Made by a program: the position numbers and the translations under genes. The notes beneath the pieces are model-generated. The model had not been told where the DNA came from. It was given only the letters and a program-made list of their open reading frames with translations, and did no database searches. From the NCBI GenBank assembly GCA_965205865.1, contig CBDBHR010000030.1, positions 1,191,866 through 1,255,865 of the forward strand: a DNA stretch of 64,000 bases, read 5' to 3'. Numbering within the stretch: the first letter of the stretch is position 1; the number at the start of each line of letters is the position of its first letter. Positions 914-63,730 of the stretch are shown here, piece by piece. This DNA is from a bacterium (GTDB lineage Bacteria; SAR324; NAC60-12).

Positions 914-2097
914 CTAGTGTATTGCCTGTTTAATACATTGTATTATTGGTCATTTGGTAGACAGGTTTGAGTTTGTTGATAATTTCTTCGGCAGTTTTAG
1001 TCCAGACATAGGGTTTTGGGTTGCGATTGTGTGTCTCGATGTAACTATGGATGGCTTCGGTCAACTCGAGCACGCTTTTGAAGGCGCCTCGTCGAATCCG
1101 TTCTGCAGTGATCTTGCCAAAAAAGCGTTCCACCATGTTCAGCCATGAGGAGGAAGTAGGAATGAAATGCGGGTGAAATCGCGGGTGTTTTTTGAGCCAT
1201 TCTTTCACCTTAAGATGTTTGTGGGTGGCGTAATTGTCCAGGATCAAGTGTACCTGCAGTTGCTTCGAGGTAGTCTTGTCAATAAGACGCAGGAAGCGCA
1301 GATACTCTTGGTGTCGGTGCCGTTTTTCACAGCGAGCGAGCACTTCCCCTGTCTGCGTATTCAAAGCAGTAAACAGACAGCAGGTGCCATGACGGATATA
1401 ATCATGAGTTCTGGTGCCATTGCGCCCTGGTTTCAGTGGCAGACCTGGCTGGGTGCGATCGAGTGCCTGGATTTGTGATTTCTCATCGACGCTCAAGACC
1501 AGCGCTTTCTCAGGAGGATTCATGTACAAACCGATGACATCTTTCAGTTTCGCAGTGAAATGCTTATCATGCGACAACTTAAATGTTTTTTCCAGATGAG
1601 GCTTGAGGCGATGGGCCTTCCATACTTTACCGACGGTTGTCTTGCCTACGCCAACTGCCTTGGCCATCGATCGCGTGCTCCAATGGGTACGGTCCTCAGG
1701 CTTCTCTTCAATGGTTTTCTTCACAATCTCCTCGATTTTATCCGCTCCATAAATGCGTGTCCTGCCAGGCCGCGGATCATCATTGAGACCTGTTATTCCT
1801 TTTTCAACAAAGCGCCGTCGCCACTTTCCAACGGCATTACCGCTGGTTCCAAGCGTTTTGGCAATTTCTTGATTCTTAAGGCCATCAGCAGCCAACAGGA
1901 TGATGCGCGCACGACGAGTGTCTCGCATCGCTCCGGTATGACGGCGTGCGGTTTTGCCCAATTCATCCCGTTCTTCCCGGGTCAGTTTTATACTTGGTGC
2001 TTTTCTCATGCTGTCTCCATATATGCAAAAAAAAGGACAGCTCGTAGTATAGCAAACCAAGGATTTTTTTACACATTAATAAAAGAGCGACACACTA
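914..2097 (-). mobile_element. IS630-family insertion sequence, full length, TA-flanked
   Basis: Single transposase ORF with HTH + DDE. Ends are ctagtgtattgcctgtttaatac... / ...gagcgacacactag (imperfect TIR, terminal CTAGTGT/ACACTAG). Both ends are shared with a second, deleted copy at 17197-17658. TA at both junctions, as expected for IS630/Tc1. Confidence 0.8.
930..2009 (-). CDS. IS630-family transposase (HTH + DDE)
   Basis: MRKAPSIKLTREERDELGK...LLAADGLKNQEIAKTLG (HTH) ... LVLSVDEKSQIQAL ... HLILDNYATHKH ... WLNMVERFFG. This is the classic IS630/Tc1 transposase architecture. Start taken at MRK rather than the upstream extension. Confidence 0.85.
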   Translation of the reverse strand: MRKAPSIKLTREERDELGKTARRHTGAMRDTRRARIILLAADGLKNQEIAKTLGTSGNAVGKWRRRFVEKGITGLNDDPRPGRTRIYGADKIEEIVKKTIEEKPEDRTHWSTRSMAKAVGVGKTTVGKVWKAHRLKPHLEKTFKLSHDKHFTAKLKDVIGLYMNPPEKALVLSVDEKSQIQALDRTQPGLPLKPGRNGTRTHDYIRHGTCCLFTALNTQTGEVLARCEKRHRHQEYLRFLRLIDKTTSKQLQVHLILDNYATHKHLKVKEWLKKHPRFHPHFIPTSSSWLNMVERFFGKITAERIRRGAFKSVLELTEAIHSYIETHNRNPKPYVWTKTAEEIINKLKPVYQMTNNTMY

Positions 2098-11033: not shown

Positions 11034-12503
11034 ATGATGCGAACAATCGCAATCCATAGAAAAGGTAGATTGGGAGTTCGGCCCCGAAGAAACAATCGGT
11101 TCGTAGGTTTTTTCGGAGTGGCTCTTGTACTGGCAGGGTGCGTTAATGTACAGCCTGAAGGTTCCCACAGGCCGCAGAGGGAGTGGGAAATGCCGCAAGT
11201 TCCCATCACGGTGGAGTCGAAACCTCTCAGGGTGGATACTCGTCCCTGCACCGGTTCATTTATTCCTCGTTATTTGTCTCATGACACCCTCGCAACTTCC
11301 GGCCTGTATGGCTATGTAAAAAGCATCACCCGTGGAATGTCCGGTCGCATTGGATTTTATCTGAGCAATGGGGCAGGTGTGGCATTGGCAGACCTGGACA
11401 ACGATGGTTTCATCGATATAGTCTTACCGGGGTTGCATGCGCCGACCAGCATTTACTGGAACCTGGGGGGGATGAAATTTCGATACGAGCAGCTGGACGC
11501 AAAATTCGCACGGGCGGTCAACGTGGTCGATGTGGATGGCGATGGTTTGCCAGACTTGGTATTCACTCATGTGGCAGGCCCGCCCTCGTTGTGGCGTGCT
11601 GGTGCCGGAGCATCAGGACCGGCATATACGCGTCTTTCAGATGATGAATTCCGCGGCGCCTTCAATCTCTATGCGATCGCTTGGGCGGATTTGGATGAGG
11701 ATGGAGATCTCGATATGGTAGGGGCTTCCTATGATTCGGAACTCAATCAACAAGGTCGCGGTTCAGGTGGGGTGTTCCTCTACATGAATGACGGTGGTGT
11801 TCTCACGCCTTTCCGTCTTTCCACCAATGCCACTGCCCTTGCTCTGATCCTCACTGATCTCAATGGGGATAGACGTCGCGACATCCTGGTAGGCAACGAC
11901 TTCCATCCGGCTGATGAAGTGCTTTTCAACACGCCCGAAGGCTGGATCAATGCGACTCCCTTCACCAGCACCACCACCAATACGATGAGCTTTGCGGAAG
12001 GAGACATCGATAACGATGGGATCCCGGAACTGCTGGCTACCGATATGAAGCCCTACCGTCAGGATGAAGCCATTGCGCATGCTTGGGCTCCGATGCTGGA
12101 AAACGAGCAAGGTTTGGAACCGGGGGACGGGGTGCAAATCGTGGCCAATGTTCTACAATCTCGTGAGCAGGGAGGCTTGGAATTTGTGGATCGTGCTGAA
12201 GAAGTCGGCGTGGACGCCACCGGTTGGAGTTGGTCGGCCCAATTTGGAGATCTGGACAACGATGGATTCCTCGACCTCTATGTCGTCAATGGCATGATTG
12301 CCATCCAACTTTTTGAGCATTTACCCGGTGACGAGTTGGTAGAAGAGAACCAAGCCCTGCGCAACGACGGAACCGGTCATTTCGTACCAGCTCTAGTTAA
12401 ATATCATTTAAAAAAGATTCCCGGAGAGGATCGATCGTTTTCAAGTCCTCCCACGATATTGTTCAATCGATCGGGAACCCTCTCGTTCATTAAAACAACT
12501 TAG
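11034..12503 (+). CDS. FG-GAP/VCBS-repeat lipoprotein (ASPIC/UnbV-like)
   Basis: LAGC lipobox. Six or more DxDGDGxxD-type repeats (DLDNDGFIDIV, VDVDGDGLPDLV, DLDEDGDLDMV, DIDNDGIPELL, DLDNDGFLDLYV). The last ~30 codons are supplied by a dispersed repeat element (from 12411). Confidence 0.7.
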   Translation: MMRTIAIHRKGRLGVRPRRNNRFVGFFGVALVLAGCVNVQPEGSHRPQREWEMPQVPITVESKPLRVDTRPCTGSFIPRYLSHDTLATSGLYGYVKSITRGMSGRIGFYLSNGAGVALADLDNDGFIDIVLPGLHAPTSIYWNLGGMKFRYEQLDAKFARAVNVVDVDGDGLPDLVFTHVAGPPSLWRAGAGASGPAYTRLSDDEFRGAFNLYAIAWADLDEDGDLDMVGASYDSELNQQGRGSGGVFLYMNDGGVLTPFRLSTNATALALILTDLNGDRRRDILVGNDFHPADEVLFNTPEGWINATPFTSTTTNTMSFAEGDIDNDGIPELLATDMKPYRQDEAIAHAWAPMLENEQGLEPGDGVQIVANVLQSREQGGLEFVDRAEEVGVDATGWSWSAQFGDLDNDGFLDLYVVNGMIAIQLFEHLPGDELVEENQALRNDGTGHFVPALVKYHLKKIPGEDRSFSSPPTILFNRSGTLSFIKTT

Positions 12504-12900
12504 CAAAGGCATCATTCTATTACACAAAAACCCAATGTCAACCCCCCAAGGCAAAATAAATGCGGGATTCGCAAAAAAAATAAAAAATCAATAAATCTGC
12601 TCAAATCCGGGGACAGTCAGAAGCCGTTCAGTTCAATAACGTTGAAAAAAGATTCCCGAGGAGTATCCATCACTTCACTTCCTCCCGCACTTATTTTGAA
12701 TCGAACGGGCGGGAACCCTCCCAAGATTTTGTTCAATCGATCAAGCGGGAACCCTTTTCTTCCCTAAAACAACAAGGCATGATTTTAGTACAACAACTAA
12801 CAACGCAGCTTCAAGCCCCCAAAAAAAAAATAAGCGGAGTCCGCGAAAAAAATAAAAAAACCATGAAGGGATCGATTGTTTTTTTAAGTTAGTTGGTCAA
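12411..12900. repeat. Dispersed repeat family, two tandem ~230-270-bp units; an inverted copy set lies at 28863-29110
   Basis: Shared blocks: aaaaagattcccgg..., ttgttcaatcgatc..gggaaccct, ctaaaacaac...atgattttagta, and caaaaaaaataaaaaa. Reverse-complement matches occur at 28863-29110. Confidence 0.7.
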
Positions 12901-13129
12901 GGTTTGGAAGACAACTATGAAGAGAGCGGGGGTACGTTGACCTGAGGAATGAACAGTTGCTTTCATTGGAATTGAAGAGGTGATTCGAGAGGGAGTCTAT
13001 GAGATTCAGATCAAGTTCTCAAATGGATTTCTCTTGAAGAGATTCAGAGATATCTTGAAAACAAAAAAAGACTGAAACGAACCATTTTGAAGTTTCCGGA
13101 GACACTCAGAAAGGATTGGAGCGAGAAAC

Positions 13130-14030
13130 TAGGTAAGCTCATAATTTTCCCTTCCGTTCAAAACTTATCCTTCGCAATAAGCTTACCGGCGAGAACTGTT
13201 CCCATGCGCCACGCAGATAAGGCTTCGAGTCCTCCGGCAATGACTTGCCAGGCTTCTACGCTCTTTGCACTTCGATGGCGCATGCTTCTCCGTTGATATC
13301 CCATTCGGCTCCACGTCGACCGGACATCAGGTGACCACTGGGAATAGCTTCCAGGTGATTGGCAAGAGTTTCCGTCTTGATAAACTGATCAAATCGCGTG
13401 ACTGCTGTTTGCACGAATTGTGAAGTTTGATAACGAACATGAATACGCGCCATCACGTCGAACGCCTGCTCTTTTCTCATATTCTGTACTTTATTGACGA
13501 ATTCCCGGGCAAATCCTTCCTGTTGCAAGTCAATTGTCAGTTCCGTATTCAGGGCAACGGTCACATTGTTTTCCGTCTGCGCCAGTAAGCCTTCTTTTTC
13601 ATGACGTTGCAAAAGCACGTCTTCGGGTGCTAAGATAATAGTTTCTCCATCCAACTCCAATGTCGTCCGTTTGCCATCCCGCAGCCGAAAAATAGCGGAG
13701 GAATCGAGCTCCACAATGGTTCGGGCGACTTGTTTCATGCGAACTCCGAGCTTCGGTCCGAGCACACTGTAATTGGCCTTGGCGCTGTAAGTCACTAAAT
13801 CTTCTTCATTATCAGCCACGACGACTTTCTTGATATTCAACTCTTCCGTGATCAATTCTTCCATGTCGTTCAAAATCGCTACGGCTTCCGGGTCACGGGT
13901 CACCAGAAAAATGCTGGCAAGGGGTTGTCGTATTTTCAATTGATGCTTGTTACGCAAGGCGCGTCCCATGCTGACTGCCGAGAGCACCAATTCCATTTTC
14001 TTTTCGATTGCAGGGTCCCGATATTGGGGT
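13130..14030 (-). pseudogene. ileS: Duplicated 3' fragment of ileS (last ~246 codons plus 3' UTR), detached from the gene
   Basis: Nucleotide sequence 13130-14023 is near-identical to 17660-18550. ORF 13256..13996 equals the C-terminus of the 1044-aa IleRS. Homology stops abruptly at about 14023. Confidence 0.85.
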
Positions 14031-14037
14031 CAGGCTG

Positions 14038-15642
14038 TGCGCCAGGAAAGCTGGCAAGAAATAGAGAGTGAAAGTCTCTTACTCGGTAAGGCAGTAACGA
14101 CCCGCCGAGTCCCCGAGTCATGAGTGGTTATTCGCAAGGATAGGCGCTAAGCGTTGACAGGGGAGAACATAGGCTCGGTATTGAGCTCCGAAATCATAGT
14201 CTCAGGCGCTGACCTTGTGGTCTGGTGGGGAAGGCAATATCAACCGAAGGCGTTAGCGTGAGTCTCGGCTGAGCCTGGCGGAGTCAAAGACCCGGTGCAT
14301 GTGTGGAAGTTTCTTGATCGGAACCTGGGAGATCCTGAAGACGACTGTCAACATTCTATTGGTAGTCGGATCGGGAAAATTAATAAATAACCCCGATATC
14401 TACGTCTTCAGGAAGTCGGACAAGTTCGTAGTAGCGTGAGCAGCCGACAAGGCTGTGGATTTTGGAGAGTGAAAGTCTCTCTGTCGTCAGTTTCCCATTC
14501 GGGCGACTAGCATATCCGGTGCGCTTAGCAGGTAACTGCTTTGCGTTCTGCCCGGAAGTAAAAGTCACCGTCTGCTTTGGACGAGAGTCCATAGTGGGAG
14601 CCAACAGGGTGGCGAGCAAACCTGGAGGCCTGAACATTAGTGAATGATTGCAGCTCCGAAAGAGACTTCCGTCGTGAATTGGCTTGACGGTGTGTTGCCC
14701 AACCGCCGACCCGCTCGCTACTCGGGGAAGGCCGAAGTTCCAAGGGAAGTAATGGGAACAGGCACCTTGGAGGGAGCCGGAGTATGGATCCAAGCATCCA
14801 GGGAAAGATCCACAGAGATAACGTCGGGAAGGGCCAACTTCCAGCAGGGACTCGCAATAACCTGCAAGGACCTACCGTATAGGGTAACACCGAAATCGGC
14901 AGGAGGATTTTGGTCTGGCGCATGAGTCCGTATGAGCGATGAAGACCGGGTAACGCTGGTCGAGGGGATGCTTGGACATCTCCCTTTTGGAGGTAACACC
15001 TCTAAAAGGCAAAGGGGCTCTCGGTAAATGGCGGGCATTTCATGAACCACTGCCGAACTTGTGTCGGTCAAGAGTGTCACCACAAAGAATGTCGAGCTGG
15101 AGATCAAATCACTCACTCCAGGGGTGAATGCAGGCGAGTGCTTAAGCTTCGGATTGGGTGGGAAGGGTTTCTGGGGAAACGCTGTTGCTGCCAACCGGAC
15201 TCGGGAAATCCGACCGTCCGGGATGAGAGGGGGGCTTGCGGAAACGTGATGCAGGGTCTGACGCCCTTTTGCCACGAAACCGGAAACGGGGGATACATTG
15301 GAAGTCGTTGACCTAAACATGCGCGCGCCGTATTTCTACCCGGCATGAAGCGGCGAACAATGAGATCATTTGCAGAGAGTAACAATGCAAAGGAAATCAA
15401 CGGAGCCTGTGGAGCAAAGGGACTTGGCTGAGAGGAATTCTGCTTGCCCTCCTGTGTTCGGAACTCAGAGGCCGTAAAATCAGAGAGCGGTTTAAGCAGG
15501 GTGCGCCAAACGGCAACGTTTGAGCGTCTGACTCGAAGCAGGAGCCGGATGCGTTAGCAGCGCACGTCCGGATCTGTACCGGAGGAATGACGAAAGGTGG
15601 CTGGAAACCACTATAAGTCAGTTCTTTACGGTGACTGCATAC
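14038..15642 (+). ncRNA. Group II intron RNA, apparently ORF-less (no intron-encoded RT/maturase); 3' boundary approximate
   Basis: Starts GUGCG at 14038, followed by the GCCAG-GAAA-CUGGC hairpin (DI). The D3-like block ...gggtaacgc...ggcaaagggg resembles Ll.LtrB-type IIA introns. Domain V candidate at 15542-15575: GAGCCGGAUGCG-loop-CGCACGUCCGGAUC with the AGC triad. The D6-like region follows. No ORF with RT motifs exists on either strand. Confidence 0.55.
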
Positions 15643-15826
15643 TTGTATTTAAATCGTGAAATGCCACTCAGACAAAGGACTGAGACTTTGTTCCTTTCTG
15701 AGACCTTCCTTGCTGAACAGACAACGCATTGCTTTTCAAACCTAGATGAGAGTCAATCTTCAGATAGATGAAAAACTCATGCACTTTAGACAATTTCTTA
15801 ATACAAATACCCCAGCCTGCCCCCAT

Positions 15827-16999
15827 TTATGTGTTCGTCCTTTTTTTCGCATAGGACTTGAGTTTAGATTGATATTCGCTGATTCGGTGGTCCTTTCCAG
15901 CAATAGATGGGCCATTGGCAATCATCCTCCTGGCCAACCGAAAGACGCGAAATGGCATACCGAGGTTTGGAATGACTTTGAGCTTGGAGACATTCATCTC
16001 ACAAGCCGTCAGGTAGCGCATATCACCTTGATGCATGTAACCGCAGAAATTCCGTTCCAAACAATCCGCCAGTTCGCGATTTATAAAGGAAACAAGGAAG
16101 ACAATACAATGAGTCACCCAAGAGGGCGGTACGCGGGGAACACCATCTGCTGCGTTGACGATACGGTATATTGGCGCGCGAATCTCTTCACCGAATTCCT
16201 CATTGCCCACACGCGGACTGCCATACGTGTAGCAGGCGGCTAGCGAATCACGTTCCAATTCCTCGCATGCGACAACTGCAAGAGCGCCACCCAGGGAATG
16301 ACCGGTAATATAGAGGGAAAAACCTTCCGGTAAATTATCGACTGCGGATTTGACTTGATCACTTACCTGATTGTACGCGGCTCGGAAACCGCTATGAATT
16401 TTAACGCCCGCTTCGCCCTTGTAAAATCGGGTATTCAAATCTGTCTTGACGTCATTCCAACTATTCGCTTCAGTACCGCGAAACGCGAGAACGGCGATTT
16501 TATCTTTTTCGCGTCCAGCAAGAAATGCCTGCGTATCGTTTATGTTGAAGGTACAAATAAGATTGAAACAGGCATCAGCAAGAGCGTCTTTTAGTTTCTG
16601 AAGACCGGGAGGCGTCTTAGCGTCGCCATCGAGTTTTTGGGCGATATAATTCTTCAGATTTTCTTCCAGTTCCGTAATTCGTCCGGCCGTTCCCTCTCCT
16701 CTATCTTTTTTCCATGCAATTTTTGCAAGCTTGGCTATTGCATCGAGTACTTCCTTGAACTGGTATTCGCCCTCGAATTGCAAATATGCAAGCGCACTCA
16801 TCTCGCTCATCATCCAAGCCGTGCGATCACTGTATGCAGCCCGGTTTGTCGGCAAGACTTTCAAATTTTCCGGTACATTAAAGTAATCACTCATTTTGTG
16901 CGCTATCGTATTACAGTGTTTATCGAAGGGATGTTTGCTTAGATTGCAAGCCCAGTCTCGAAATGGTCTCCCGATGTGGTTTTCCCGGACGTCAAGCAT
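15827..16999 (-). CDS. Class-3 (fungal-type) lipase family alpha/beta hydrolase
   Basis: GHSLGGALA nucleophile elbow, YTYGSPRVGN, and downstream D/H residues fit the Lipase_3 fold. Confidence 0.75.
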   Translation of the reverse strand: MLDVRENHIGRPFRDWACNLSKHPFDKHCNTIAHKMSDYFNVPENLKVLPTNRAAYSDRTAWMMSEMSALAYLQFEGEYQFKEVLDAIAKLAKIAWKKDRGEGTAGRITELEENLKNYIAQKLDGDAKTPPGLQKLKDALADACFNLICTFNINDTQAFLAGREKDKIAVLAFRGTEANSWNDVKTDLNTRFYKGEAGVKIHSGFRAAYNQVSDQVKSAVDNLPEGFSLYITGHSLGGALAVVACEELERDSLAACYTYGSPRVGNEEFGEEIRAPIYRIVNAADGVPRVPPSWVTHCIVFLVSFINRELADCLERNFCGYMHQGDMRYLTACEMNVSKLKVIPNLGMPFRVFRLARRMIANGPSIAGKDHRISEYQSKLKSYAKKRTNT

Positions 17000-17196
17000 C
17001 CCGCAAGAACATGGATTTTAAAAAAAAACATTTTCATGTTCCTCTTTTTATTCAGAATTGCTCAACTCGAGTAAGAGTTAAAGCAGGGATGACAGGCTCG
17101 GTAATTTTCGAGCAATATTCACTGCTGTTTTTCCCAGAGCTTTCACTTGTTTCACCAAGGCGGCCTGATTGAGATTTTGTTGCGTCGCTTCCTGCA

Positions 17197-17658
17197 CTAG
17201 TGTATTGCCTGTTTAATACATTTGTATTATTGGTCATTTGGTAGACAGGTTTGAGTTTGTTGATAATTTCTTCGGCAGTTTTAGTCCAAACATATGGTTT
17301 TGGGTTGCGATTGTGCGCTTCGATGTAACTATGGATGGCTTCGGTCAACTCGAGCACGCTTTTGAAGGCGCCTCGCCGTCGCCACTTTCCAACGGAATTG
17401 CCGCTGGTTCCAAGCGTTTTGGCAATCTCTTGATTCTTAAGGCCATCAGCAGCCAACAGGATGATGCGCGCACGAAGAGCGTCTCGCATCGCTCCGGTCT
17501 GACGGCGTGCGGTTTTGCTCAATTCATCCCGTTCTTCCCGGGTCAGTTTTATACTTGGCGCTTTCCTAATGCTGTCTCCATATATGCAAATAAAAAGACA
17601 GCTCTAGTATAGCAAACCAAGGAATTATTTACACATTAATAAAAGAGCGACACACTAG
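17197..17658 (-). mobile_element. Internally deleted IS630 derivative (MITE-like), ~462 bp
   Basis: Both termini are identical to the 914-2097 element, but about 725 bp of the interior (corresponding to ~1090-1815) is missing. The remnant ORF fuses the transposase N-terminal HTH to its C-terminal tail (17052..17522). Confidence 0.8.
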
Positions 17659-17781
17659 GTAAGCTCATAATTATCCCTTCCGTTCAATACTTATCCTTCG
17701 CAACAAGCTTACCTGCGAGAACTGTTCCCATGCGCCACGCAGATGAGGCTTCGAGTCCTCCGGCAATGACTTGCCAGGCTT

Positions 17782-20700
17782 CTACGCTCTTTGCACTTCG
17801 ATGGCGCATGCTTCTCCGTTGATATCCCATTCGGTTCCACGTCGACCGGACATCAGGTGACCACTGGGAATAGCTTCCAGGTGATTGGCAAGAGTTTCCG
17901 TCTTGATAAACTGATCAAATCGCGTGACTGCTGTTTGCACGGATTGTGAAGTTTGATAACGAACATGAATACGCGCCATCACGTCGAACGCCTGCTCTTT
18001 TCTCATATTCTGTACTTTATTGACGAATTCCCGGGCAAATCCTTCTTGTTGCAAGTCAATTGTCAGTTCCGTATTCAGGGCAACGGTCACATTGTTTTCC
18101 GTCTGCGCCAGTAAGCCTTCTTTTTCATGACGTTGCAAAAGCACGTCTTCGGGTGCTAAGATAATAGTTTCTCCATCCAACTCCAATGTCGTCCGTTTGC
18201 CATCCCGCAGCCGAAAAATAGCGGAGGAATCGAGCTCCGCAATGGTTCGGGCGACTTGTTTCATGCGAACTCCGAGCTTCGGTCCGAGCACCCTGTAATT
18301 GGCCTTGGCGCTGTAAGTCACTAAATCTTCTTCATTGTCAGCCACGACGACTTTCTTGATATTCAACTCTTCCGTGATCAATTCTTCCATGTCGTTCAAA
18401 ATCGCTACGGCTTCCGGGTCACGGGTCACCAGAAAAATGCTGGCAAGGGGTTGTCGTATTTTCAATTGATGCTTGTTACGCAAGGCGCGTCCCATGCTGA
18501 CTGCCGAGAGCACCAATTCCATTTTCTTTTCGATTGCAGGGTCCCGATAGCGTCTCCGGACTTGGGGAAAGTTCGCCAGGTGCACGCTCTCTTCATCTCG
18601 TTCGTTTCGCAGATTGCGGTAAATTCCTTCGGCAATAAAGGGCACAAAGGGTGCGATCACTTTGGAGAGCTCCACTAAGACCTGATAAAGTACCGCATAG
18701 GCTTCCTGCTTGTCTTTTCCCTGTCCCGCCTTCCAAAATCGGCGGCGGCTGCGTCTAATATACCAATTGGTCAACAAGTCGATGAAGCCCACGAAAGGAG
18801 CAACGGATTTATTCAAATCGTAGGCGTCCATGCTGGCTCTCACTGTTTCGATCAGTCCCTGCAATTTGGACAATATCCAGCGATCCAGGGGATTGGAGGG
18901 CATGCTCAGTATTTCCCCGGAGGGCTGCCAGCGGTCGATAGCGGCATAGGTGGTCAGAAAGGCCAGAGCATTCCAAAGGGGCAGCAAAATAGAACGGGTG
19001 GTGTCCACCAGTCCTTTTTCCGAAAACCTGAGATCGTCTCCGCGTACTGCCGGGGAATTGAGCATGTAGAGACGAATGGCATCCGCTCCATATTGGTCCA
19101 ACATGTTGATAGGATCCGGATAGTTTTTCAGTCGTTTGCTCATTTTTTTACCATCTTCAGCCAGGACGAGTCCGTTGACGATGACATTGTGAAAGGCCGG
19201 TTTGTTGTACAATGCCGTCCCGACGACGACCAGAGAATAGAACCAGCCTCTTGTTTGATCCAACCCCTCACAAATAAAATCCGCAGGGAAATTGGCGTCA
19301 AATCTTTCTTTGTTTTCAAAAGGGTAATGTTCCTGACCATAGGGCATAGAGCCGGATTCGAACCAACAATCGAGCACTTCGGGAATCCGCTTATATATTT
19401 TGTCATTTTGAACTATCACCAGATCGTCCACCAAGTGTTTGTGCAAATCTTCCACTTTTTGTCCGCTCGCTTCTTCCAGTTCTGCCACGCTACCGAAACA
19501 GAGACAATCTCCATCCTCACTCTTCCAAATCGGCAATGGGGTTCCCCAGAAACGATTTCGACTGATGGCCCAGTCTCTCGCATTTTCCAACCATTTGCCA
19601 AAACGTCCATCCCGGATGTGCCCCGGTACCCAATGAATGGTCTGATTATTTTGCACCATCTGGTCTTTGATTGCTTCCACCTTGACGAACCAGGTCGAGA
19701 TGGCTTTATAGATGAGGGGGGTGTCCGTTCGCCAGCAGAAGGGATAACTGTGTTCGATGGTTTCGTGTCTGAGAATTTTGTTCTTGTCTTTCAAATAGCG
19801 GATGATCGTTTTGTCGGCCGCCTTGATATTCAACCCTGCCAGGAATCCCATGTAGGATTGAAAATTTCCGTCATCGTCCACCGGGTCGAACAGGGGTAAA
19901 CCTTCCCGCAGGCCAATCCGCAAGTCATCTTCACCAAAGGCTGGCGCTTGGTGGACAATGCCGGTTCCACTTTCATCACTGATATAATCGTCGACCAGCA
20001 CCCGCCATACCCGGCTGCTGTCCACTCGTCCAATGGCAAAGTCAAACGGTGGATGATAAGTTTTGTTCCGCAAATCGCTGCCTTTCAAGGCGTCAAGCAC
20101 TTCATATTCACCGGCTTGCCAATAAGCAGGTATGCGGTTGGTTGCCAGGTAATAGTTTTCTCCACTGGCCTTTTCCCTGATTTTGACGTAATCTATTTCC
20201 GCTCCGACACAGCATGCCAGATTTGCGGGGATGGTCCAGGGAGTGGTGGTCCATCCTAAATAATAAGTGTTTTCCTCATCAGTCGCCTGGCATTTGAAAG
20301 TAATCGAAGGATCCTGCGTCTCCTGATAGTTGAGGTTGGCTTCGAAATTGGAAAGAGGAGTTGAAAGCCGCCAGGAATAAGGCACCACTTTTCTGCCTTC
20401 GTAGATGAGATTCTTCTGCCATAATTGTTTCATCACCCACCAAACAGATTCCATGTAGGAGCGATCCATGGTTTTGTAATCGTTGTCAAAATCTACCCAA
20501 CGGGCCATACGATCCACGGTTTCCCGCCATTCCCTGGTGTATCGTAATACGATTTTGCGACATGCTTCATTGTAATTCCCTATACCAAATTCGATGATAT
20601 CCGGACGCCCTTCTAATTGGAGCGCTTGTTCCACCTCAAACTCGACCGGCAGTCCGTGGCAATCCCAACCAAAACGCCGTTCCACTCGATGGCCTCGCAT

Positions 20701-20916
20701 GGTTTTGTAACGAGGAATGACGTCTTTGATGGTACCGGCAAGCAAATGACCATAGTGAGGCAATCCTGTCGCAAAAGGAGGTCCATCATAAAATACGAAT
20801 TCACGATCTTTGGGACGTTGTTCGATCGATTTTTCAAAGATTTGTTGATGCTTCCAAAACGCCAGAATCTCGCTTTCAAGATCGGGGAAATTTATTTTAT
20901 TGGAAATTTCTTTCAT
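17782..20916 (-). CDS. ileS: Isoleucine--tRNA ligase, type 2 (eukaryote-like)
   Basis: 1044 aa; HYGH (HIGH) and KMSKR (KMSKS) motifs; CP1 editing domain. Confidence 0.95.
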   Translation of the reverse strand: MKEISNKINFPDLESEILAFWKHQQIFEKSIEQRPKDREFVFYDGPPFATGLPHYGHLLAGTIKDVIPRYKTMRGHRVERRFGWDCHGLPVEFEVEQALQLEGRPDIIEFGIGNYNEACRKIVLRYTREWRETVDRMARWVDFDNDYKTMDRSYMESVWWVMKQLWQKNLIYEGRKVVPYSWRLSTPLSNFEANLNYQETQDPSITFKCQATDEENTYYLGWTTTPWTIPANLACCVGAEIDYVKIREKASGENYYLATNRIPAYWQAGEYEVLDALKGSDLRNKTYHPPFDFAIGRVDSSRVWRVLVDDYISDESGTGIVHQAPAFGEDDLRIGLREGLPLFDPVDDDGNFQSYMGFLAGLNIKAADKTIIRYLKDKNKILRHETIEHSYPFCWRTDTPLIYKAISTWFVKVEAIKDQMVQNNQTIHWVPGHIRDGRFGKWLENARDWAISRNRFWGTPLPIWKSEDGDCLCFGSVAELEEASGQKVEDLHKHLVDDLVIVQNDKIYKRIPEVLDCWFESGSMPYGQEHYPFENKERFDANFPADFICEGLDQTRGWFYSLVVVGTALYNKPAFHNVIVNGLVLAEDGKKMSKRLKNYPDPINMLDQYGADAIRLYMLNSPAVRGDDLRFSEKGLVDTTRSILLPLWNALAFLTTYAAIDRWQPSGEILSMPSNPLDRWILSKLQGLIETVRASMDAYDLNKSVAPFVGFIDLLTNWYIRRSRRRFWKAGQGKDKQEAYAVLYQVLVELSKVIAPFVPFIAEGIYRNLRNERDEESVHLANFPQVRRRYRDPAIEKKMELVLSAVSMGRALRNKHQLKIRQPLASIFLVTRDPEAVAILNDMEELITEELNIKKVVVADNEEDLVTYSAKANYRVLGPKLGVRMKQVARTIAELDSSAIFRLRDGKRTTLELDGETIILAPEDVLLQRHEKEGLLAQTENNVTVALNTELTIDLQQEGFAREFVNKVQNMRKEQAFDVMARIHVRYQTSQSVQTAVTRFDQFIKTETLANHLEAIPSGHLMSGRRGTEWDINGEACAIEVQRA

Positions 20917-28459: not shown

Positions 28460-28862
28460 TAGTTCGAGTTAATGCATGTTTCTATGAAATGCTCATTAGA
28501 GAATTTGAGGGTTACACTTTGAATAGTTTATTTTATTTATCTTTGTTTTTTTGTCAAGTTGCGTTCGAGGGAGTTTAATTGAAAAATAACTATTGCATTT
28601 CCCCTCATTCCTCTTATCTGAAAACCGTTGCTCCCTACCTTCCTGTTATTTCGCCGCTCAAAGGAATCTTTCAGACCTCTACCCTGAAAAACTTAAAAAA
28701 CCAATAACCTTCTTCATTGAGTTTATGTTTTTTTAATCTCTTAGGGTCTGATTCCCCGCAGTCTTGCTGCGATGAAAATGATTTACCAATAAATACGCCG
28801 CTGCTTGCCGCAGGGTAGTTCATTTTTTTCGCGAATCCTGTTTTTTTAGGCTATACGTTGTA

Positions 28863-29110
28863 TAGTAGTGCTAAAATCATGACTTGTTGTTTCAGGGAAG
28901 AAGAGGGTTCCCGCTCGATCGATTGAACAATGCCGTGGTAGGGCGTGAAAACGATGGATCCTCCCCGGGAATCTTTTTTCAACATTTTTGTATTTTAGGC
29001 TTGATCCTGAGGATCCTAAGTAGTAGTAGTGTTAAAATCATTTCTTGTTGTTTTGGGAAAGAGAGGGCGTGAAAACGAGTCATCCCCCCCGGGAATCTTT
29101 TTTCAACTTT
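28863..29110. repeat. Dispersed repeat family (same family as 12411-12900, opposite orientation), two tandem sub-units
   Basis: tagtagtgctaaaatcatgacttgttgtttcagggaagaagagggttcccgctcgatcgattgaacaa...gggaatcttttttcaac is repeated with variation. Confidence 0.7.
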
Positions 29111-29602
29111 TTGCTATTCTTATGAACTCGAGAGTGACGAATTCTTGTCAGTCAATGAAATTAAAATCACTGACTGATACACATTCTCATTTCCGCGAAA
29201 GCGCATTGGATCAACTTAAGAGTCCGTATATTATTTCAGTTACTTGGAGTCAAAAATAGAATTCCACACCCCTGGAAAGATGGGCCAGGGGAGCGGGAAT
29301 CCGTAGTGTTTTCATAGGCTAATGAAGACTGGATCCCGCATCAAGTGCGGGATGACACGAGAATTCGTAACTCAAGAGCAATGAGAGTAGGCGCGATGAG
29401 ACGTAGAATCAATAGCAGGCAGTTAACTTCTGACAAAAGAGGAATTATGAAAGATAAAATCAAAAAAAATATCAATCAACTTCTGAAAAAGGAGAAATTA
29501 TGCGACATCCAATAAATCAAATCCAATTCACTTCTAATAAAGAAGAAGCAATGGAACATCCAAGGAATCTTAACCCAAATCAAAGTGAAAGAGGAGGAAT
29601 CA

Positions 29603-31359
29603 TGGAAAAAAGTATAACCAGAAAAATCAATTCATTGTTGTTGACCCTCATCCTGATGGTGACCGTCCTGTGGGTCGGGTCGGTCGTTGCTGCTGAGAAA
29701 GAGATGGTCACCGACCCCACCACCGGTAAAATGGTGAGCGCACCGGAGTATGGCGGGACATTCAGCTGGGGCGATGCGCTCGAGCCTCCGCACTGTGACC
29801 CCTACCTGCATGGCCATGGGCCAAGGGTCATCGATGAAGTTGGAGAGAAGCTGGGCCTCGGGAACTGGGCAGTAGATCGGGCCGAACATAGCTTTTCAGA
29901 CCCGTGGATCCCTTCCCATTTCATGACAGGGGCGCTGGCGGAAAGCTGGGAGATGGCTGACCCACTGACCTATGTCTTCCACATTCGCCAGGGCATTCGC
30001 TGGCACGACAAGGCGCCGATGAATGGTCGGAAGTTCATTGCCCAGGATGTCGTCTATAACTTTCACCGTTATACAGGTACGGGCAGCGGCTTCAGCGAAC
30101 CGAGCGCCGGTGCCGGCAATCTCGCCTCAATACCATTCGAATCGATAACGGCCAGAGACGATGCGACGGTTGTCTTCAAACTGACGAAGCCAAAGGTAGA
30201 CCTGCCTGACGTTCTCCTGGTCGACTGGTATGCGTGGATATTACCCCCTGAGGTCATCGAGCAGCATGGCGACCTGACGGACTGCGACAACATGGTCGGC
30301 ACCGGGCCCTATATGCTGACCGAATGGGTCAAGGGCAGCTCCCTGACCTATTCCAAGAATCCTGACTACTGGGACTTCGACGAAAAATACCCGCAGAACC
30401 GCTTACCCTACATCGACCAGATAAATCGGTTGATCATGCCGGATAAGGCAACATCGCTGGCGGCGCTGCGCTCGGCCAAGCTCGATTACGTCGGTCAGCC
30501 TGGCATCAATCAGTTACAAGCGTCCCAGGTAGAGAGCCTCGAGCGCACCAACCCCGAAATCGTAGTATGGCCGTGGGCCTTTCGGTCGGAGACCTCCGCT
30601 GCATTCAACGTGCGCCACCCGTCGCCCTTTCAAGACATCCGGGTGCGTAAGGCCATGCAGATGGCCATTGATATCGAAACCATTAACAAGACCTACTTTG
30701 GGGGCTTTGGAATGACGACGCCCCAAGGGATTATAGGGGATGGTCTGAAGGGGTACTTCGTCCCATTCGAAGAGTGGCCCGAAGAGACCAAGAACGTCTT
30801 TACTTATGACCCGGAAGGGGCGATGCGGCTTCTGGCTGAAGCGGGCTATCCCAATGGCTTCAAGGCCGTCCATAACCCTTTGCCCTCATGGGGGCTGGGC
30901 TATCAAGAGATAGTCGTTGAATACTGGGCTGCGATTGGCGTTGACGTAGAGATCAAGACGCATGAAGGCACTCAGTTGACGGGATTAATAACTGACGGTT
31001 CGTATGAAGGCATGACCTTTATGGATCTCGGCAATGACACCTCGCCTCCCTTGCTGCTAAACCGGCTTCAAATCGGGGCGGTGTGGGGCCGCACCGGACA
31101 CCAGGACCCCGTGATGCAGTCCAAGGTTGAAGCCGCTATGGCCGCTCCCACCCTCGAGGAGCAGCAGCGGCTGACCGCGGAGGCAGATTTGTACATGATC
31201 GAGCAGCATTGGTACATATGGGGTCCCAAAGTTCCCCAATTCGACGCGATCCAGCCGTGGGTGATAGGTTTCAACGGTGAAATCTTTGTTGGCAACTCAC
31301 ATGCGCCGTTCTCCCGTCTGTGGATCGATAGTGCGCTGAAGAAAGAAATGGGGCATTAG
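29603..31359 (+). CDS. ABC transporter substrate-binding protein, family 5 (cluster 2)
   Basis: GAGGAGG Shine-Dalgarno 6 nt upstream of the MEKS start; signal peptide; EYGGTF, KAMQMA and WIDSALKKEMGH signature. ~60% GC versus ~45% for the backbone. Confidence 0.85.
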
Positions 31360-31464
31360 GAGCTGTGTTAAAACCTTGTTCCCCCTCTCCTGGTGGGAGG
31401 CAGAGAAGCAGTTTGGCCACAGGCGTGGCCAGTAAAAACTACTGAACGCGGGAGGGGGCATCAT

Positions 31465-32421
31465 ATGAAAGCCTATCTCATCCGGCGGGTATTGCTGGTA
31501 ATCCCCACCCTGTTTATCCTGAGCATCCTGGTCTTTCTCTCGGTGCGCTTCATCCCCGGCGACGTCGTAGATGCCATGTTGGGTCAGCTGCAGTCGACAA
31601 TAGGGAGGATAGACCGTGCAGCCGTTGAGCGTCGGCTGGGACTGGACGTGCCGGTCTGGGAGCAGTATGGACGCTGGATCGGCCAGATTCTCCGGCATGG
31701 CAGCCTGGGCAAATCCCTGTGGGGCGAATGGACGGTAGAGGAGAGGATACTAGCTAGCCTGCCGATCACCCTTGAGCTTGGCGTCCTGGCCATCGTAATC
31801 GGGCTTGTGATCGCGCTGCCCGTGGGTATCTACTCGGCGATGCGCCAGGATACGGTCGGCGATTACGCGGGGCGTTCCCTGGCCATCATCGGCCTGGCCA
31901 CGCCGAACTTCTGGCTGGCCATTATGGTGATACTCTACCCGGCCATCTGGTGGGGCTGGACGCCGCCGATGCAGTGGGTTCCTTTCACCAAAGACCCGCT
32001 GGGGAATCTCGGGATATTCCTCATTCCCAGCGCGATTCTGGGGACAGCCATGGCCGCCGCCACCATGCGCATGACGCGCACTATGATGCTGGAGGTGCTC
32101 CGGCAGGACTATATCCGCACCGCTTGGTCCAAGGGCCTCAGGGAGCGGGTCGTGATTATCCGGCACACCATCAAAAATGCCCTCATCCCGGTGGTAACTC
32201 TGATCGGCCTGCAGTTGCCGATCCTGGTAGGGGGCGCGGTGATCATGGAGAATATCTTCAACCTGCCGGGACTCGGTCGTCTCATGCTGGATGCCCTGCA
32301 ACACCGGGACTACCCGGTGGTCCAGGGAACCAACCTGTTTTTCGCGACCGGGGTGGTGCTGCTCAATCTTTTGATCGACCTGATATATCCCTATTTGGAC
32401 CCCAGAGTCAGATATGAATAG
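31465..32421 (+). CDS. ABC transporter permease, DppB-like (cluster 2)
   Basis: MKAYLIRRVLLVIPT...MRMTRTMMLEVLRQDYIRTAWSKGL; Shine-Dalgarno GGAGGGGG. Confidence 0.85.
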   Translation: MKAYLIRRVLLVIPTLFILSILVFLSVRFIPGDVVDAMLGQLQSTIGRIDRAAVERRLGLDVPVWEQYGRWIGQILRHGSLGKSLWGEWTVEERILASLPITLELGVLAIVIGLVIALPVGIYSAMRQDTVGDYAGRSLAIIGLATPNFWLAIMVILYPAIWWGWTPPMQWVPFTKDPLGNLGIFLIPSAILGTAMAAATMRMTRTMMLEVLRQDYIRTAWSKGLRERVVIIRHTIKNALIPVVTLIGLQLPILVGGAVIMENIFNLPGLGRLMLDALQHRDYPVVQGTNLFFATGVVLLNLLIDLIYPYLDPRVRYE

Positions 32422-32464
32422 TCGTTATGCTTCTGGTAAATATAGGTTTGAGATTCGTCTGTCA

Positions 32465-32885
32465 GAAGTAGTCCCTGAGGGACGAAAGGAAGTAGCCCAG
32501 CGATTCATCGCTGGGAACAAAAGATAGTCTCCTTCAAAGTCCCGGAGGGACGATACAACAATGAGGTTTCATGTCCCATTCCTACATCAGCAATCATCTT
32601 CATGGTGTCTTTTGCGCAAAAAACCGAGTTGAGATGATGACTCCTGAAATCAAAAAGCGCCTTTTTCCTTATTTGACATCATGAGCGTTATATTTGGGAG
32701 TAACTCGCTGGATCGAAGAAGTGTCGTCCCTCCGGGACTAGCTGAGGAGGAGGGGGGTTCCTTTCCCAGCGATGAATCGCTGGGCTATTCCCTTTCGTCC
32801 CTCTGGGACTAGCTGAGGAGGGGGTTCCTTTCCCAGCGATGAATCGCTGGGCTATTCCCTTTCGTCCCTCCAGGACTGCATTATA
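32465..32885. repeat. Cluster of short hairpin repeats inserted between the two permease genes of cluster 2
   Basis: Hairpin cccagcgattcatcgctggg at 32496, and its reverse complement twice (32766, 32833) inside a tandem ~70-bp unit. Multiple gtccctNNgggac palindromes. Confidence 0.7.
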
Positions 32886-32899
32886 GAAAAATCGAGAAC

Positions 32900-33868
32900 A
32901 TGAGCGACAGCATAGAGACGCCATCCCCGATCATTGAGTCCAAGCGACGGGGCCGGTTTGTGGATTTCTTCATCAGGCTGATCAGGGAAAAGCCCCTCGG
33001 GACGTTTGGCGGGATAGTCACCTTGATCTTTATTTTGTTGGCGATCTTTGCCGAGCTTCTGGCGCCTTATCCCTATCGGGAAATACACCTGGCCGACATA
33101 CTAAAAGGCCCAGCCGCCCAGTATCTGCTGGGGACCGACCATTTGGGGCGAGACCTGTTGAGCCGCCTTCTCTACGGGGCTCGTATTTCCTTGACCGTCG
33201 GTCTGGCCGCGACGGTGCTGAATGTGGTGGTCGCTGTCCTGATTGGCGGCACTTCCGGATTCCTGGGGGGGAAAGTGGACCTGGCGGTGCAGCGCTTTGT
33301 CGATGCCTGGATGGCCTTCCCGGGGCTGCTCTTGTTGTTAACCATCATGTCCATCGTGGGACAAGGCCTCCTCCAGATCATCGTGGTGTTGGGGATTACC
33401 GGAGGTGTCGGCGGCTCCCGAGTCATCCGAGGCGCCGTGGTGGGCATCAAAGAGAATGACTATTTCCTGGCAGCCAGGGCCGTAGGCACTCCCACGCGCC
33501 ATATCCTGACCCGCCATGTGCTGCCCAATATTATGGCGCCCCTCATCATCATCTTCTCGATCAACATTGGCGGCGTAATCATCGCCGAGGCGTCGCTGAG
33601 CTTCCTGGGATTCGGGCTGCCCCTCAAGGTTCCCAGCTGGGGAGGAATGCTCAGCCGGGAAGGGCGGGAATTCATGGAGCGGGCGCCCCGGCTGGCGCTC
33701 TGGCCGGGGCTGTGCCTGACGATTGTCGTCTACTCTCTCAACATGTTCGGAGACGCCATGCGAGACCTGCTGGATCCCCGGCTGCGAGGCGGACAGGGAA
33801 GTTACGGCGCCACGGGGAAACGCAAACGAGGTCTCTTGGCCCGACTGATCAACCCTTTCAACTGGTAA
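32900..33868 (+). CDS. ABC transporter permease, DppC-like (cluster 2)
   Basis: LLGTDHLGRD, SLTVGL, GDAMRDLLDPRLRG. Confidence 0.85.
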   Translation: MSDSIETPSPIIESKRRGRFVDFFIRLIREKPLGTFGGIVTLIFILLAIFAELLAPYPYREIHLADILKGPAAQYLLGTDHLGRDLLSRLLYGARISLTVGLAATVLNVVVAVLIGGTSGFLGGKVDLAVQRFVDAWMAFPGLLLLLTIMSIVGQGLLQIIVVLGITGGVGGSRVIRGAVVGIKENDYFLAARAVGTPTRHILTRHVLPNIMAPLIIIFSINIGGVIIAEASLSFLGFGLPLKVPSWGGMLSREGREFMERAPRLALWPGLCLTIVVYSLNMFGDAMRDLLDPRLRGGQGSYGATGKRKRGLLARLINPFNW

Positions 33869-33931
33869 GCGCGCAATATGAAATATACTCGCCTGAATCG
33901 AATGGTCTCTTAAGAGACCTCAATAGTAACC

Positions 33932-59365: not shown

Positions 59366-59525
59366 AATCGTCGAGAACATGCTTTCTGGAACGAAAGCAG
59401 GTTTTAAAGCAACCCGCAATCTTGTTTTTAATCAAAAAGCAAAAAGGAGCACCATGAACCGTCAAAAAAGTAGAGAAATCGTCGAGAACGTGCTTTCGGG
59501 AATCAAAGCAGGTTTTAAATCAATC
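59366..59525 (+). repeat. Duplicated ~47-bp hairpin-containing segment in the leader of SBP-3
   Basis: aatcgtcgagaacatgctttctggaacgaaagcaggttttaaagcaa and aatcgtcgagaacgtgctttcgggaatcaaagcaggttttaaatcaa, 111 bp apart; each carries a tgctttc/gaaagca stem. Confidence 0.6.
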
Positions 59526-59558
59526 CTTAATTATGAACATCCATTCGAAAGGAAAAAG

Positions 59559-61328: not shown

Positions 61329-61597
61329 CAGGCCGACTGGAAGTACTTATGGACCGGGCAGTACTGCCCGGTCCACTCTAGTACTGCTGTCAGAAAATGG
61401 TTTGACCTTCTGTTAAGGTAATAATGAGTCCTGTTTGTCATTCCGGGCGAAGACCCGGAATCCGGGGGACTTACCCTAGAACTCCCAGATCCCGGATCAA
61501 GTCCGGGATGACACAGAATGGGTCAATCACTTCGTAACGCCTGTACCAGGATACACCGCGTTTCCCTGCCAATTTCAAAAATGATGAGGTCCGTCCC

Positions 61598-63581: not shown

Positions 63582-63730
63582 TTCTGGCTCTCCACTCTTG
63601 TTTTCTTACCCTTTGAACCCATGAGGAACTATCTTCCATATCTTTTCTATCTCTCCACATCCCCACAAATGCATCTTTTCCCAAATCTGAATAGTCGCCT
63701 TTTGATTGGTTTTGATACCGTTGAGCTAAA
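63582..63730 (-). pseudogene. VapB-like antitoxin remnant (no in-frame start codon)
   Basis: ...DLGKDAFVGMWRDRKDMEDSSSWVQRVRKQEW resembles the C-terminal region of the small antitoxins paired with PIN toxins. Its stop overlaps the vapC ATG. Confidence 0.3.

Follow-up and report, generated by a model that had tools for sequence, protein, structure and literature searches.

A 905-bp direct repeat of the ileS 3′ end in a mobile-element-rich stretch of a SAR324-like bacterium

Bacterial tandem duplications that arise by illegitimate recombination and are remodelled by deletion leave direct repeats and one novel joint between points that were once apart. An essential gene is kept in one copy, the leftover partial copy appears to decay, and RecA may act on the repeats to delete or amplify the segment. 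A related X-Y-X order, with an intact upstream gene and a 5′-truncated downstream fragment, results from Campbell-type integration and from aberrant excision of the lambda dgal kind with subsequent re-integration. Prophage e14 in icd and many islands in tRNA genes reconstitute the 3′ end of their target gene, and the displaced 3′ end then forms a direct repeat at the far side of a hotspot locus. Among mobile elements, members of the IS630 family insert at TA and are excised via double-strand breaks (PMC2170065), and the account given there, which cites Tenzen & Ohtsubo 1991, places the TA duplication preferentially within CTAG.

We analyzed a window of 64,000 nucleotides from a SAR324-like bacterium in which the 3′ end of ileS, the gene for isoleucyl-tRNA synthetase, is present twice. 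The repeat is real, but it is an ordinary scar of rearrangement within a strain-variable region rich in mobile elements. It has all the features of remodelled tandem duplications listed above, but only 905 bp of a 4.5-kb unit are still duplicated, and its formation is inferred from sequence. The structure also looks old (about 0.7% private divergence on one copy), whereas tandem duplications are usually transient.

The repeat and the elements around it

Local alignment of positions 13119-14023 (copy A) with 17645-18549 (copy B, minus strand) extends over 905 bp without a gap, with 13 mismatches and 892 of 905 positions identical (98.6%), which rules out a chance match. The copies lie in direct orientation, 4526 bp apart from start to start, and are separated by 3,621 bp; the same pair (13119/17645) was also seeded by a repeat search of the window. 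In each copy, 768 nt of ileS (255 codons and the stop) are followed by a trailer of 124 nt, the TA of a CTAG and a further 11 nt. The first-pass annotation had proposed near-identity of 13130-14023 and 17660-18550, a scar left by duplication or recombination at the ileS 3′ end, and a group II intron, a class-3 lipase gene and a deleted IS630 element in the interval. The alignment bears out the near-identity, with the limits shifted by about 10-15 bp on the left and 1 bp on the right; the scar is supported as well, and the three elements were correctly named according to Rfam, Pfam and alignment to a full-length IS.

Copy B consists of the IS tip, the CTAG, the 124-nt trailer and the last 255 codons of the intact ileS (17782-20916, minus strand; Pfam tRNA-synt_1, Anticodon_1 and DUF5915), and is thus the 3′ end of this gene. 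The gene encodes a class I tRNA synthetase of 1,044 aa with a DUF5915 C-terminus, which differs from the conspecific protein P0121 at 4 aa. Copy A, on the same strand, contains an 11-nt stub, GAGCGAGAAAC (13119-13132), the non-coding trailer (13133-13255) and the fragment ileS′, that is, the last 255 codons and the stop (13256-14023; DUF5915, E 8.6e-60). The fragment retains residues 790-1044 (DUF5915) only; the tRNA-synt_1 and Anticodon_1 domains are missing by Pfam, and with them the catalytic part. Its open reading frame, from an internal ATG at 13996, spans 246 aa. The final C of the stub opens the CTAG, and the stub resembles the right tip of IS630, GAGCGACACAC. In copy B, the terminal 11 nt form the tip of the IS630 derivative; the stub is identical at 9 of 11 positions to this tip (17645-17655) and to that at 2085-2095.

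The IS630-family internal-deletion derivative (17200-17655, minus strand; 456 bp) is flanked by CTAG at 17197-17200 and 17655-17658. Its full-length parent, an element of 1,179 bp (917-2095, minus strand) with CTAG at 914-917 and 2095-2098 and a 376-aa DDE_3 transposase (DDE_3 1.8e-22, plus HTH_23/HTH_32), is found in the same window. Alignment matches 17197-17378 to 914-1094 (96%) and 17374-17658 to 1813-2098 (95%), so that the derivative lacks a 718-bp interior and keeps both ends, including the terminal inverted repeats. It retains only HTH_23 by Pfam and is therefore non-autonomous; the full-length element is a possible source of transposase in trans. With terminal inverted repeats, a TA duplication inside CTAG, a full-length copy carrying DDE_3 and an N-terminal HTH, and a deleted copy with intact ends, the pair matches IS630/Tc1-mariner elements and their MITE-like derivatives. 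The derivative is an ordinary member of this group without notable difference, and only its position connects it with the repeat boundary.

The class-3 lipase gene (15827-16999, minus strand; Pfam Lipase_3, E 4.7e-27) is intact. Its true start is probably an internal Met, since homologues measure 352-366 aa; the best of them are 88% and 86% identical. Conspecific copies carry a 463-bp deletion of 16302-16764, and the gene described here is the only intact allele seen in the species.

The group II intron (14037-15635, plus strand; 1,599 nt) has no reverse-transcriptase ORF. It starts with GTGCG at 14037 and matches RF02005 at 14071-14293 with 168 bits (gathering score 49). A local search placed D5/D6 at 15540-15635 through RF00029, at 31 bits and E 0.001, which is below the gathering score of 40; this alignment displays a D5 helix with AGC, plus D6. 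The three sense frames gave no Pfam match, their longest ORFs being 89-93 aa, and tblastn with an intron RT N-terminus found no match for the intron. ORF-less bacterial group II introns likewise combine a 5′ GUGCG, a D1 matching Rfam group-II-D1D4-6 and no intron-encoded protein; their D5 with an AGC triad and their D6 have candidate counterparts here. Compared with them, the present intron is unusually long (1.6 kb), has ~900 nt without recognizable coding remnant from D1-D3 to D5, and contains a second D1-like motif at 14463-14639. Spacer "c" (15636-15826), which leads from the intron 3′ end to the lipase stop, has no match in any relative. We also observed that intron debris adjoins the lipase gene in three unrelated genomic contexts.

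Directly 5′ of the intron lies a 13-nt spacer, TTGGGGTCAGGCT (14024-14036, plus strand). Its last 12 nt accompany the intron copies of other strains as well: the homology to L083, L085, L086 and L087 begins at 14025, while the flanks differ and the orientation is opposite. The spacer is a putative IBS2-IBS1 target motif. For the EBS1/EBS2 pairing, complementary 7-mers at 14391 (to ATTGGGG) and 14627 (to TCAGGCT) are candidates whose place in D1 is not validated; the 12 nt of 5′ exon that intron copies in different contexts have in common lend it indirect support.

To the left of copy A, a CRTAC1-family gene (FG-GAP + UnbV_ASPIC) is truncated to its 5′ 452 codons (11034-12393, plus strand). Its homologues measure 560-590 aa with PF07593, and their coverage of the query stops near residue 452; at the nucleotide level, homology with the intact L088 gene ends at 12393, and the ORF continues to 12503 through unrelated sequence. 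The missing 138 codons were not found in the window. The junction filler "d" (12394-13118; repeat families D2 and D3) follows. Its first part, 12394-12852, is an interspersed repeat, R, with internal subrepeats of ~235-270 nt and further copies at 28865-29110 of the window (inverted) and at 1953-2403 in L085/L086 (81% identical); 12853-13118 had no match anywhere.

Divergence of the two ileS copies

Copies A and B differ at 6 sites in the 768 coding nucleotides. They have three substitutions in common (13433, 13424 and 13313) that are missing from six conspecific contigs. Between copy B and the nearest strain, L083, there are 7 differing sites, and the distance between A and B is smaller than that between any two different strains sampled. 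On these comparisons, A and B are each other's closest relatives. The common derived sites could alternatively stem from later gene conversion between the copies.

All five private coding changes fall on copy A and none on copy B. Four of the five alter an amino acid (R>S, A>V, S>F and T>A) at residues that copy B has in common with 14 conspecific proteins and nearly all SAR324 relatives. The private changes on A (4N:1S) were compared with the changes among functional alleles (14N:20S), a difference that is not significant (Fisher p = 0.16). The non-coding trailer, where divergence within the repeat peaks (5 mismatches from 13147 to 13219 of copy A), has changed in both copies. Such a pattern is the one expected of a pseudogene next to a constrained gene, and copy A looks to be decaying while the intact ileS stays conserved. 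The lineage-specific changes common to A and B, together with the private changes on A, suggest that A is an intragenomic, drifting duplicate.

The locus in related strains

The eight conspecific contigs show hypervariable DNA 3′ of the ileS stop. Here, islands carry Opp transporters, luciferase-like genes, a type I RM system or MmeI/GmrSD, or ferrochelatase follows directly. Ferrochelatase is the core neighbour of ileS, as seen in L090 and in L001, which belongs to another species. Divergence sets in at the stop codon in L090, 59 nt beyond it in L089, and in other haplotypes at the CTAG, 124 nt beyond the stop; every haplotype that carries the whole trailer diverges at this CTAG, each with a different TA-flanked element. 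None of the conspecific haplotypes diverges at ileS codon 790. The left end of the repeat coincides with the CTAG used by the IS630 family, and its right end abuts the 12-13 nt motif associated with the intron.

In L083, L085, L086 and L087, the same IS630 derivative and lipase lie directly downstream of a single-copy ileS, which indicates that both predate the duplication. The earlier reading of a mosaic insertion thus holds for the scar and its named elements, but not for a block inserted between the FG-GAP gene and ileS with the repeat as its bracket, as the derivative and the lipase are resident in these four strains. An FG-GAP/ileS adjacency without the insert, which that reading suggested looking for in related genomes, is shown by none of them, and the FG-GAP gene itself is truncated at 12393. 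The arrangement with copy A is unique among nine conspecific-level contigs, and the junction 26-mer is absent from JGI metagenomes. As judged from these haplotypes, the novelty of this genome lies in copy A and in the junction that connects it with the intron.

Origin of the duplication and alternatives

The model that we favor, with slightly better than even confidence, is the duplication of a 4,526-bp unit via one illegitimate joint, followed by a deletion, or an equivalent re-integration of a circle. In this model, copy A would be a genuine, non-functional, 5′-truncated duplicate of ileS from the strain's own lineage. The duplicated unit would begin with the 13-nt intron target motif, take in the intron, the lipase and the IS630 derivative, and end at ileS codon 790, and the novel joint, at 14023/14024, would connect ileS-internal sequence to TTGGGGTCAGGCT and the intron. 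Initially, one illegitimate recombination would have produced a tandem duplication or, equivalently, a 4.5-kb circle that was re-integrated by homologous recombination. The second intron-lipase-IS copy would then have been lost through a deletion with its start point 11 nt within the IS tip; in a recipient already without the block, integration alone would yield the present structure. As ileS is essential and one complete copy must survive, a breakpoint inside the gene is seen as a duplication. Afterwards, the fragment would drift while the intact copy stays conserved. The predicted precursor, which would combine an intact lipase with a convergent intron and lack copy A, was not found in the sampled strains. 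With mismatches to the IS tip at 2 of 11 positions, the stub at the left end is far more divergent than the remainder of the repeat. It may therefore be the tip of a different TA-targeting element, which would favor the one-step integration variant.

An unlikely but serious alternative is that conspecific donor DNA with the order ileS-3′-trailer-ISd-lipase-intron, either a 4.5-kb circle from aberrant excision or a linear fragment, integrated into an "ileS-trailer-CTAG-d-CRTAC1′" recipient. Integration would proceed by Campbell-type homologous recombination within the 905 bp, or one end would be joined by homology and the other illegitimately. X-Y-X would thus arise in one step, with one repeat copy donor-derived and the other native. 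This makes a second deletion step unnecessary; a recipient carrying "d" is plausible as haplotypes split sharply after the CTAG, and it would explain the imperfect IS-like stub. The A/B differences at 13520, 13219 and 13178 are polymorphisms also present in other strains, and the intact lipase cannot derive from the deleted allele of L083, so that the segment would be of different ancestry. However, the three derived sites of A and B that six conspecifics lack require donor and recipient to be of nearly the same lineage, and no recipient haplotype without the block was found among the eight conspecific contigs. The locus resembles Campbell-type and lambda dgal-like events in its gene order, and a circle would have the size of the repeat spacing (4,526 bp). 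Unlike those systems, the 3.6-kb block has no replication, transfer or integration function and no phage, plasmid or integrase genes, and the circle is hypothetical.

It is improbable that a mis-join or strain chimera in the metagenome placed the ileS 3′ end of a second strain beside the intron. In favor of such an artefact, the arrangement is unique among the nine contigs, no independent sequence contains the junction, and related assemblies are low-coverage long-read contigs with frameshift errors (ileS is split into P0244 and P0247 in one of them). Yet the functional allele of a second strain would have neither four private replacements at invariant residues nor three lineage-specific substitutions in common with copy B. 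The 13 differing sites do not fit a collapsed or duplicated set of identical reads, and copy A ends at the CTAG and at the intron target motif, not at arbitrary positions. The sequence evidence thus argues against a collapse or strain-chimera artefact.

We consider very improbable a site-specific island that integrated in the 3′ part of ileS, reconstituted the gene with a copy of the gene end of its own and displaced the native end, with the 905-bp repeats as extended attL/attR, as in elements of the e14/icd type. The intact gene upstream, the displaced 5′-truncated 3′ fragment downstream, the direct orientation and the hotspot agree with this. But neither the interval nor the ORFs near copy A encode an integrase or recombinase; only the lipase, the IS remnant and spurious intron-internal ORFs were found there. 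Other islands at the locus begin at or after the stop codon and not at codon 790, strains that lack the repeat carry the intervening block as a resident, and typical att duplications are shorter by a factor of about 10. Template switching is a known property of group II RTs, and the ileS fragment lies only 13 nt from the intron 5′ end, but a switch by an RT acting in trans from intron RNA to ileS mRNA, with a cDNA of the mRNA 3′ end inserted next to the intron, is hardly credible, as the trailer end would be expected beside the intron where the codon 790 end is found, ileS′ is antisense to the intron, and no RT gene occurs in the intron or the window region.

Recombination between long direct repeats belongs to general recombination biology, and RecA could in principle use the two 905-bp repeats to delete or amplify the lipase block. 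We regard as very doubtful that the repeats are maintained and not a passive scar, with the intact lipase as a recombination-switchable cassette. If this were true, RecA exchange between A and B would, at the level of the population, reversibly delete or amplify the lipase-intron-IS block and generate strain-level on, off or gain variation of the lipase. A related, similarly doubtful idea, prompted by the intron debris beside the lipase, is that the lipase and the RT-less intron form a co-mobile module.

The duplication by one illegitimate joint, as favored above, is a matter of ordinary genome plasticity; it opens or settles no larger question, and its significance is mostly one of annotation hygiene. 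As a case study, it shows that where a partial copy of an essential gene lies near mobile elements, population data should be checked before an insertion with target duplication is called. It also flags the only intact class-3 lipase allele in the population, and records, for an uncultured SAR324-like lineage, that a hypervariable island lies immediately behind ileS and that the CTAG of the IS630 family recurs there as a breakpoint.

The repeated ileS 3' end and its boundaries

Local alignment resolved the duplicated ileS 3' end into a single ungapped block of 905 bp, with copy A at 13119-14023 and copy B at 17645-18549 (892 identities, 13 mismatches, spacing 4,526 bp). The same pair was seeded independently by a repeat search. 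The alignment bears out the near-identical direct duplication reported in the first-pass annotation, whose coordinates were essentially correct, as was its inventory of the DNA between the copies (a group II intron, a class-3 lipase gene and an IS630 deletion derivative). Copy B is the 3' end of the intact ileS gene (17782..20916, minus strand; 1,044 aa with tRNA-synt_1, Anticodon_1 and DUF5915 matches), while copy A carries ileS', a fragment consisting of the last 255 codons and the stop (13256-14023). Beyond the coding part, both copies contain a 124-nt trailer, a CTAG and 11 further nt, which form the tip of the IS630 derivative in copy B and are matched at 9 of 11 positions in copy A. The left repeat end (13129-13132 / 17655-17658) is this CTAG adjoining the IS tip, and the right end (14023/14024) falls at codon 790 within ileS. 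Between this end and the first base of the intron there are 13 nt, TTGGGGTCAGGCT. This spacer opens with TTGGGG (14024-14029), which recurs at 18562-18567, 12 nt past the repeat end of copy B; the pair may be due to chance, or may be the trace of a microhomology join followed by a 12-nt deletion.

On the other side of copy A, the gene previously described as FG-GAP belongs to the CRTAC1 family (FG-GAP/UnbV_ASPIC), whose members are 560-590 aa long and end in an UnbV_ASPIC domain. Its homology ends at 12393, and the whole window lacks the final 138 codons; the annotated 489-aa ORF (11034-12503) finishes in unrelated repeat sequence. In the relative L088, the gene is intact and lies within the same upstream synteny block, with unrelated genes after it. 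The filler between the truncated gene and copy A (12394-13118) starts with an interspersed repeat of ~460 nt (12394-12852; other copies at 28865-29110 and in L085 and L086, at 1953-2403 in L085) and ends with 266 nt (12853-13118) without a match. Because the CRTAC1 gene is truncated at 12393 and joined to this repeat and to the unmatched 266 nt, copy A sits between two rearrangement joints and not at an ancestral gene boundary. The repeat belongs to an interspersed intergenic family of ~235-270-nt subunits containing AAAAAAGATTCCCGG.G.GGAT, found at several synteny breakpoints. We found no inverted-repeat partner for the 11-nt stub, and the two termini of 12394-13131 are unrelated, which speaks against this interval as a single TA-flanked MITE. 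Elsewhere in the window of this SAR324-like genome, three matches to the Acido-Lenti-1 RNA (32470-32877; 51-54 bits, gathering threshold 37), two on the plus and one on the minus strand, lie inside a ~5-kb stretch (~28600-34000) that breaks synteny with L001.

Conspecific haplotypes downstream of ileS

The IleRS of the closest species-level genome, L001 (OZ242383.1), is 88% identical, followed by those of SAR324 MAGs. A protein search placed 21 near-identical IleRS in one cluster, and the conspecific protein P0121 differs at 4 of 1,044 residues. Exact-protein look-ups with the IleRS and the lipase of the window gave no identical record. We compared eight conspecific contigs, including L083-L087, L089 and L090. 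All have Lon, an aminotransferase and an M16 peptidase upstream of ileS; what follows ileS differs in all of them. In L090 the stop codon leads directly to an HTH gene and then ferrochelatase. Ferrochelatase also lies directly downstream of ileS in L001 (75% aa identity to that of L090), and the ileS-ferrochelatase neighbourhood is the core arrangement. L089 retains 59 nt of the trailer, followed by IS fragments, an MmeI-type enzyme and GmrSD, and L084 has the trailer up to CTAG, then another TA-flanked element (starting TAGTGCC) and a type I RM system. In L083 and L087, the trailer and CTAG are followed by the IS630 derivative of the window, a lipase gene frameshifted by a 463-bp deletion, 404 nt, a truncated intron in ileS orientation and Opp genes. 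L085 and L086 resemble these two, except that a further ~200-bp MITE sits at CTAG, the intron is a 910-nt deletion derivative and luciferase-like genes are present.

Since the conspecific contigs all differ downstream, the region following ileS is a hypervariable island that begins right at the stop codon. In every sampled haplotype with a whole trailer, the divergence point is the CTAG 124 nt past the stop (17655-17658; TA at 17656-17657). The compared conspecific contigs carry no second ileS fragment within 10 kb of ileS and no FG-GAP gene near it. As the IS derivative and the lipase gene follow ileS in conspecifics without a second fragment, they are resident features older than the duplication. 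Overall, the observation of a duplication stands and its earlier interpretation as a mosaic insertion is supported in part only: the scar is confirmed, an ancestral FG-GAP/ileS boundary finds no support in the compared conspecifics, and the IS and lipase are resident. Diverged paralogous Opp-type transporter cassettes (SBP_bac_5, OppB, OppC; 66-86% mutual nt identity) recur in the variable regions of the species, at 29600-33900 and 59500-63990 in the window, at 15340-19300 in L083 and L087, and in L088.

Elements between the two copies

The IS630 derivative (17200-17655, 456 bp) has CTAG on either side, and both of its ends are 95-96% identical to those of a full-length, CTAG-flanked IS630-family element of 1,179 bp at 917-2095 with a gene for a 376-aa DDE_3 transposase. 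Members of the IS630 family target TA, classically inside CTAG, and transpose by a cut-and-paste route that involves double-strand breaks (PMC2170065). No plasmid record matched the IS remnant, and a terminator and promoter scan of 12300-18000 returned counts indistinguishable from those of shuffled sequences. The lipase gene (15827..16999, minus strand) is intact in the window only, the 463-bp deletion being common to four conspecifics. Two ~88%-identical relatives (L081 10001-12100; L082 8768-11059) have the lipase gene alone (~1.1 kb, 88-90% nt identity) in unrelated neighbourhoods. In both it lies next to remnants of a group II intron, in L081 a convergent 5' fragment that includes a reverse-transcriptase N-terminus, in L082 a D6-like 50-mer. 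The 191-nt spacer from the intron 3' end to the lipase stop (15636-15826) has no match in any relative.

The group II intron (14037-15635, plus strand, antisense to ileS) starts with GTGCG and matches the Rfam model group-II-D1D4-6 with 168 bits, and Rfam places a candidate D5/D6 at 15540-15635. Of its 1.6 kb, ~900 nt between D1-D3 and D5 are unassigned, and a second D1-like motif lies at 14463-14639 (RF02003, 33 bits). Neither Pfam on three frames nor tblastn with the reverse-transcriptase N-terminus from L081 detected a reverse-transcriptase ORF or remnant. Homology to the copies in L083, L085, L086 and L087 extends from 12 nt 5' of the intron to 1 nt 3' of it (14025-15636). In these four strains the intron points the other way with respect to the lipase gene, and both flanks are unrelated to those in the window (the 191-nt spacer and ileS'); given the differing flanks, a simple inversion was rejected. 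The most complete copy is that of the window, and the conspecific copies (L085 15251-16160; L083 15044-15343) are independent deletion derivatives: L085 and L086 lack 14196-14889, deleted between CCGAAATC repeats, and L083 and L087 lack 14130-14428 and everything past 14643. The 12-nt 5' exon shared across contexts has the length and position of an IBS2-IBS1, and in L085 a near-identical motif occurs twice, inverted, a short way downstream. We infer from these sequence features that the motif 5' of the intron, TGGGGTCAGGCT, is a putative intron target (IBS). Candidate EBS sites are present. The intron may have inserted beside an ileS' end that was already there, or ileS' may have become joined to a motif and intron resident at the site. 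A metagenome scan with the first 30 nt of the intron gave no match and hence no other intron homes.

Divergence of copy A and proposed origin of the duplication

Differences between the copies were polarised against six conspecifics over 768 coding nt. Three substitutions (13433, 13424 and 13313) are common to both copies and absent from these strains. The copies differ at 6 coding sites; five of these changes are private to A and none to B, the sixth being a polymorphism also found in L084. Four private changes of A alter the amino acid (R>S, A>V, S>F, T>A), at positions where the ancestral state is retained in B, in 14 conspecific proteins and in nearly all SAR324 relatives, although the replacement excess is not significant (non-synonymous:synonymous 4:1 vs 14:20; Fisher p = 0.16). 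The non-coding trailer has changed in both copies. Such a pattern is expected of an intragenomic duplicate released from constraint, and does not fit easily with a collapsed repeat or the functional allele of a second strain. The 26-mer spanning the ileS'-intron junction had no match in the metagenome scan. Copy B differs from L083, its nearest strain, at 7 coding sites, against 6 from A; measured by strain divergence, the duplication is therefore not a recent one.

One novel joint, between ileS codon 790 and the 13-nt motif, delimits the 4,526-bp unit; at the opposite end of the repeat is the IS630 CTAG, next to an IS-tip-like stub. We propose that one illegitimate recombination between codon 790 and the motif would have created a tandem duplication of this unit or, alternatively, a 4.5-kb circle re-integrated by homology. 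From a point 11 nt into the second IS copy, a deletion would then have removed the second intron-lipase-IS block with adjoining DNA, and the same event would have brought in the filler and the truncated CRTAC1 gene. Since ileS is essential, a breakpoint inside it would be recovered only as a duplication. One-step integration of the unit into a recipient already carrying the filler at CTAG is possible and would account better for the imperfect stub, but donor and recipient would then have to be almost identical. A microhomology join at TTGGGG fails as a simple explanation because it needs the extra 12-nt deletion. A site-specific island was rejected, as there is no recombinase and other islands begin at or after the stop codon, and retro-duplication by reverse-transcriptase template switching has the wrong orientation. 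Judged from the assembled sequence, the feature is a bona fide, ordinary genome-plasticity scar in a mobile-element-rich island, and provides another instance of a kind of scar already known.
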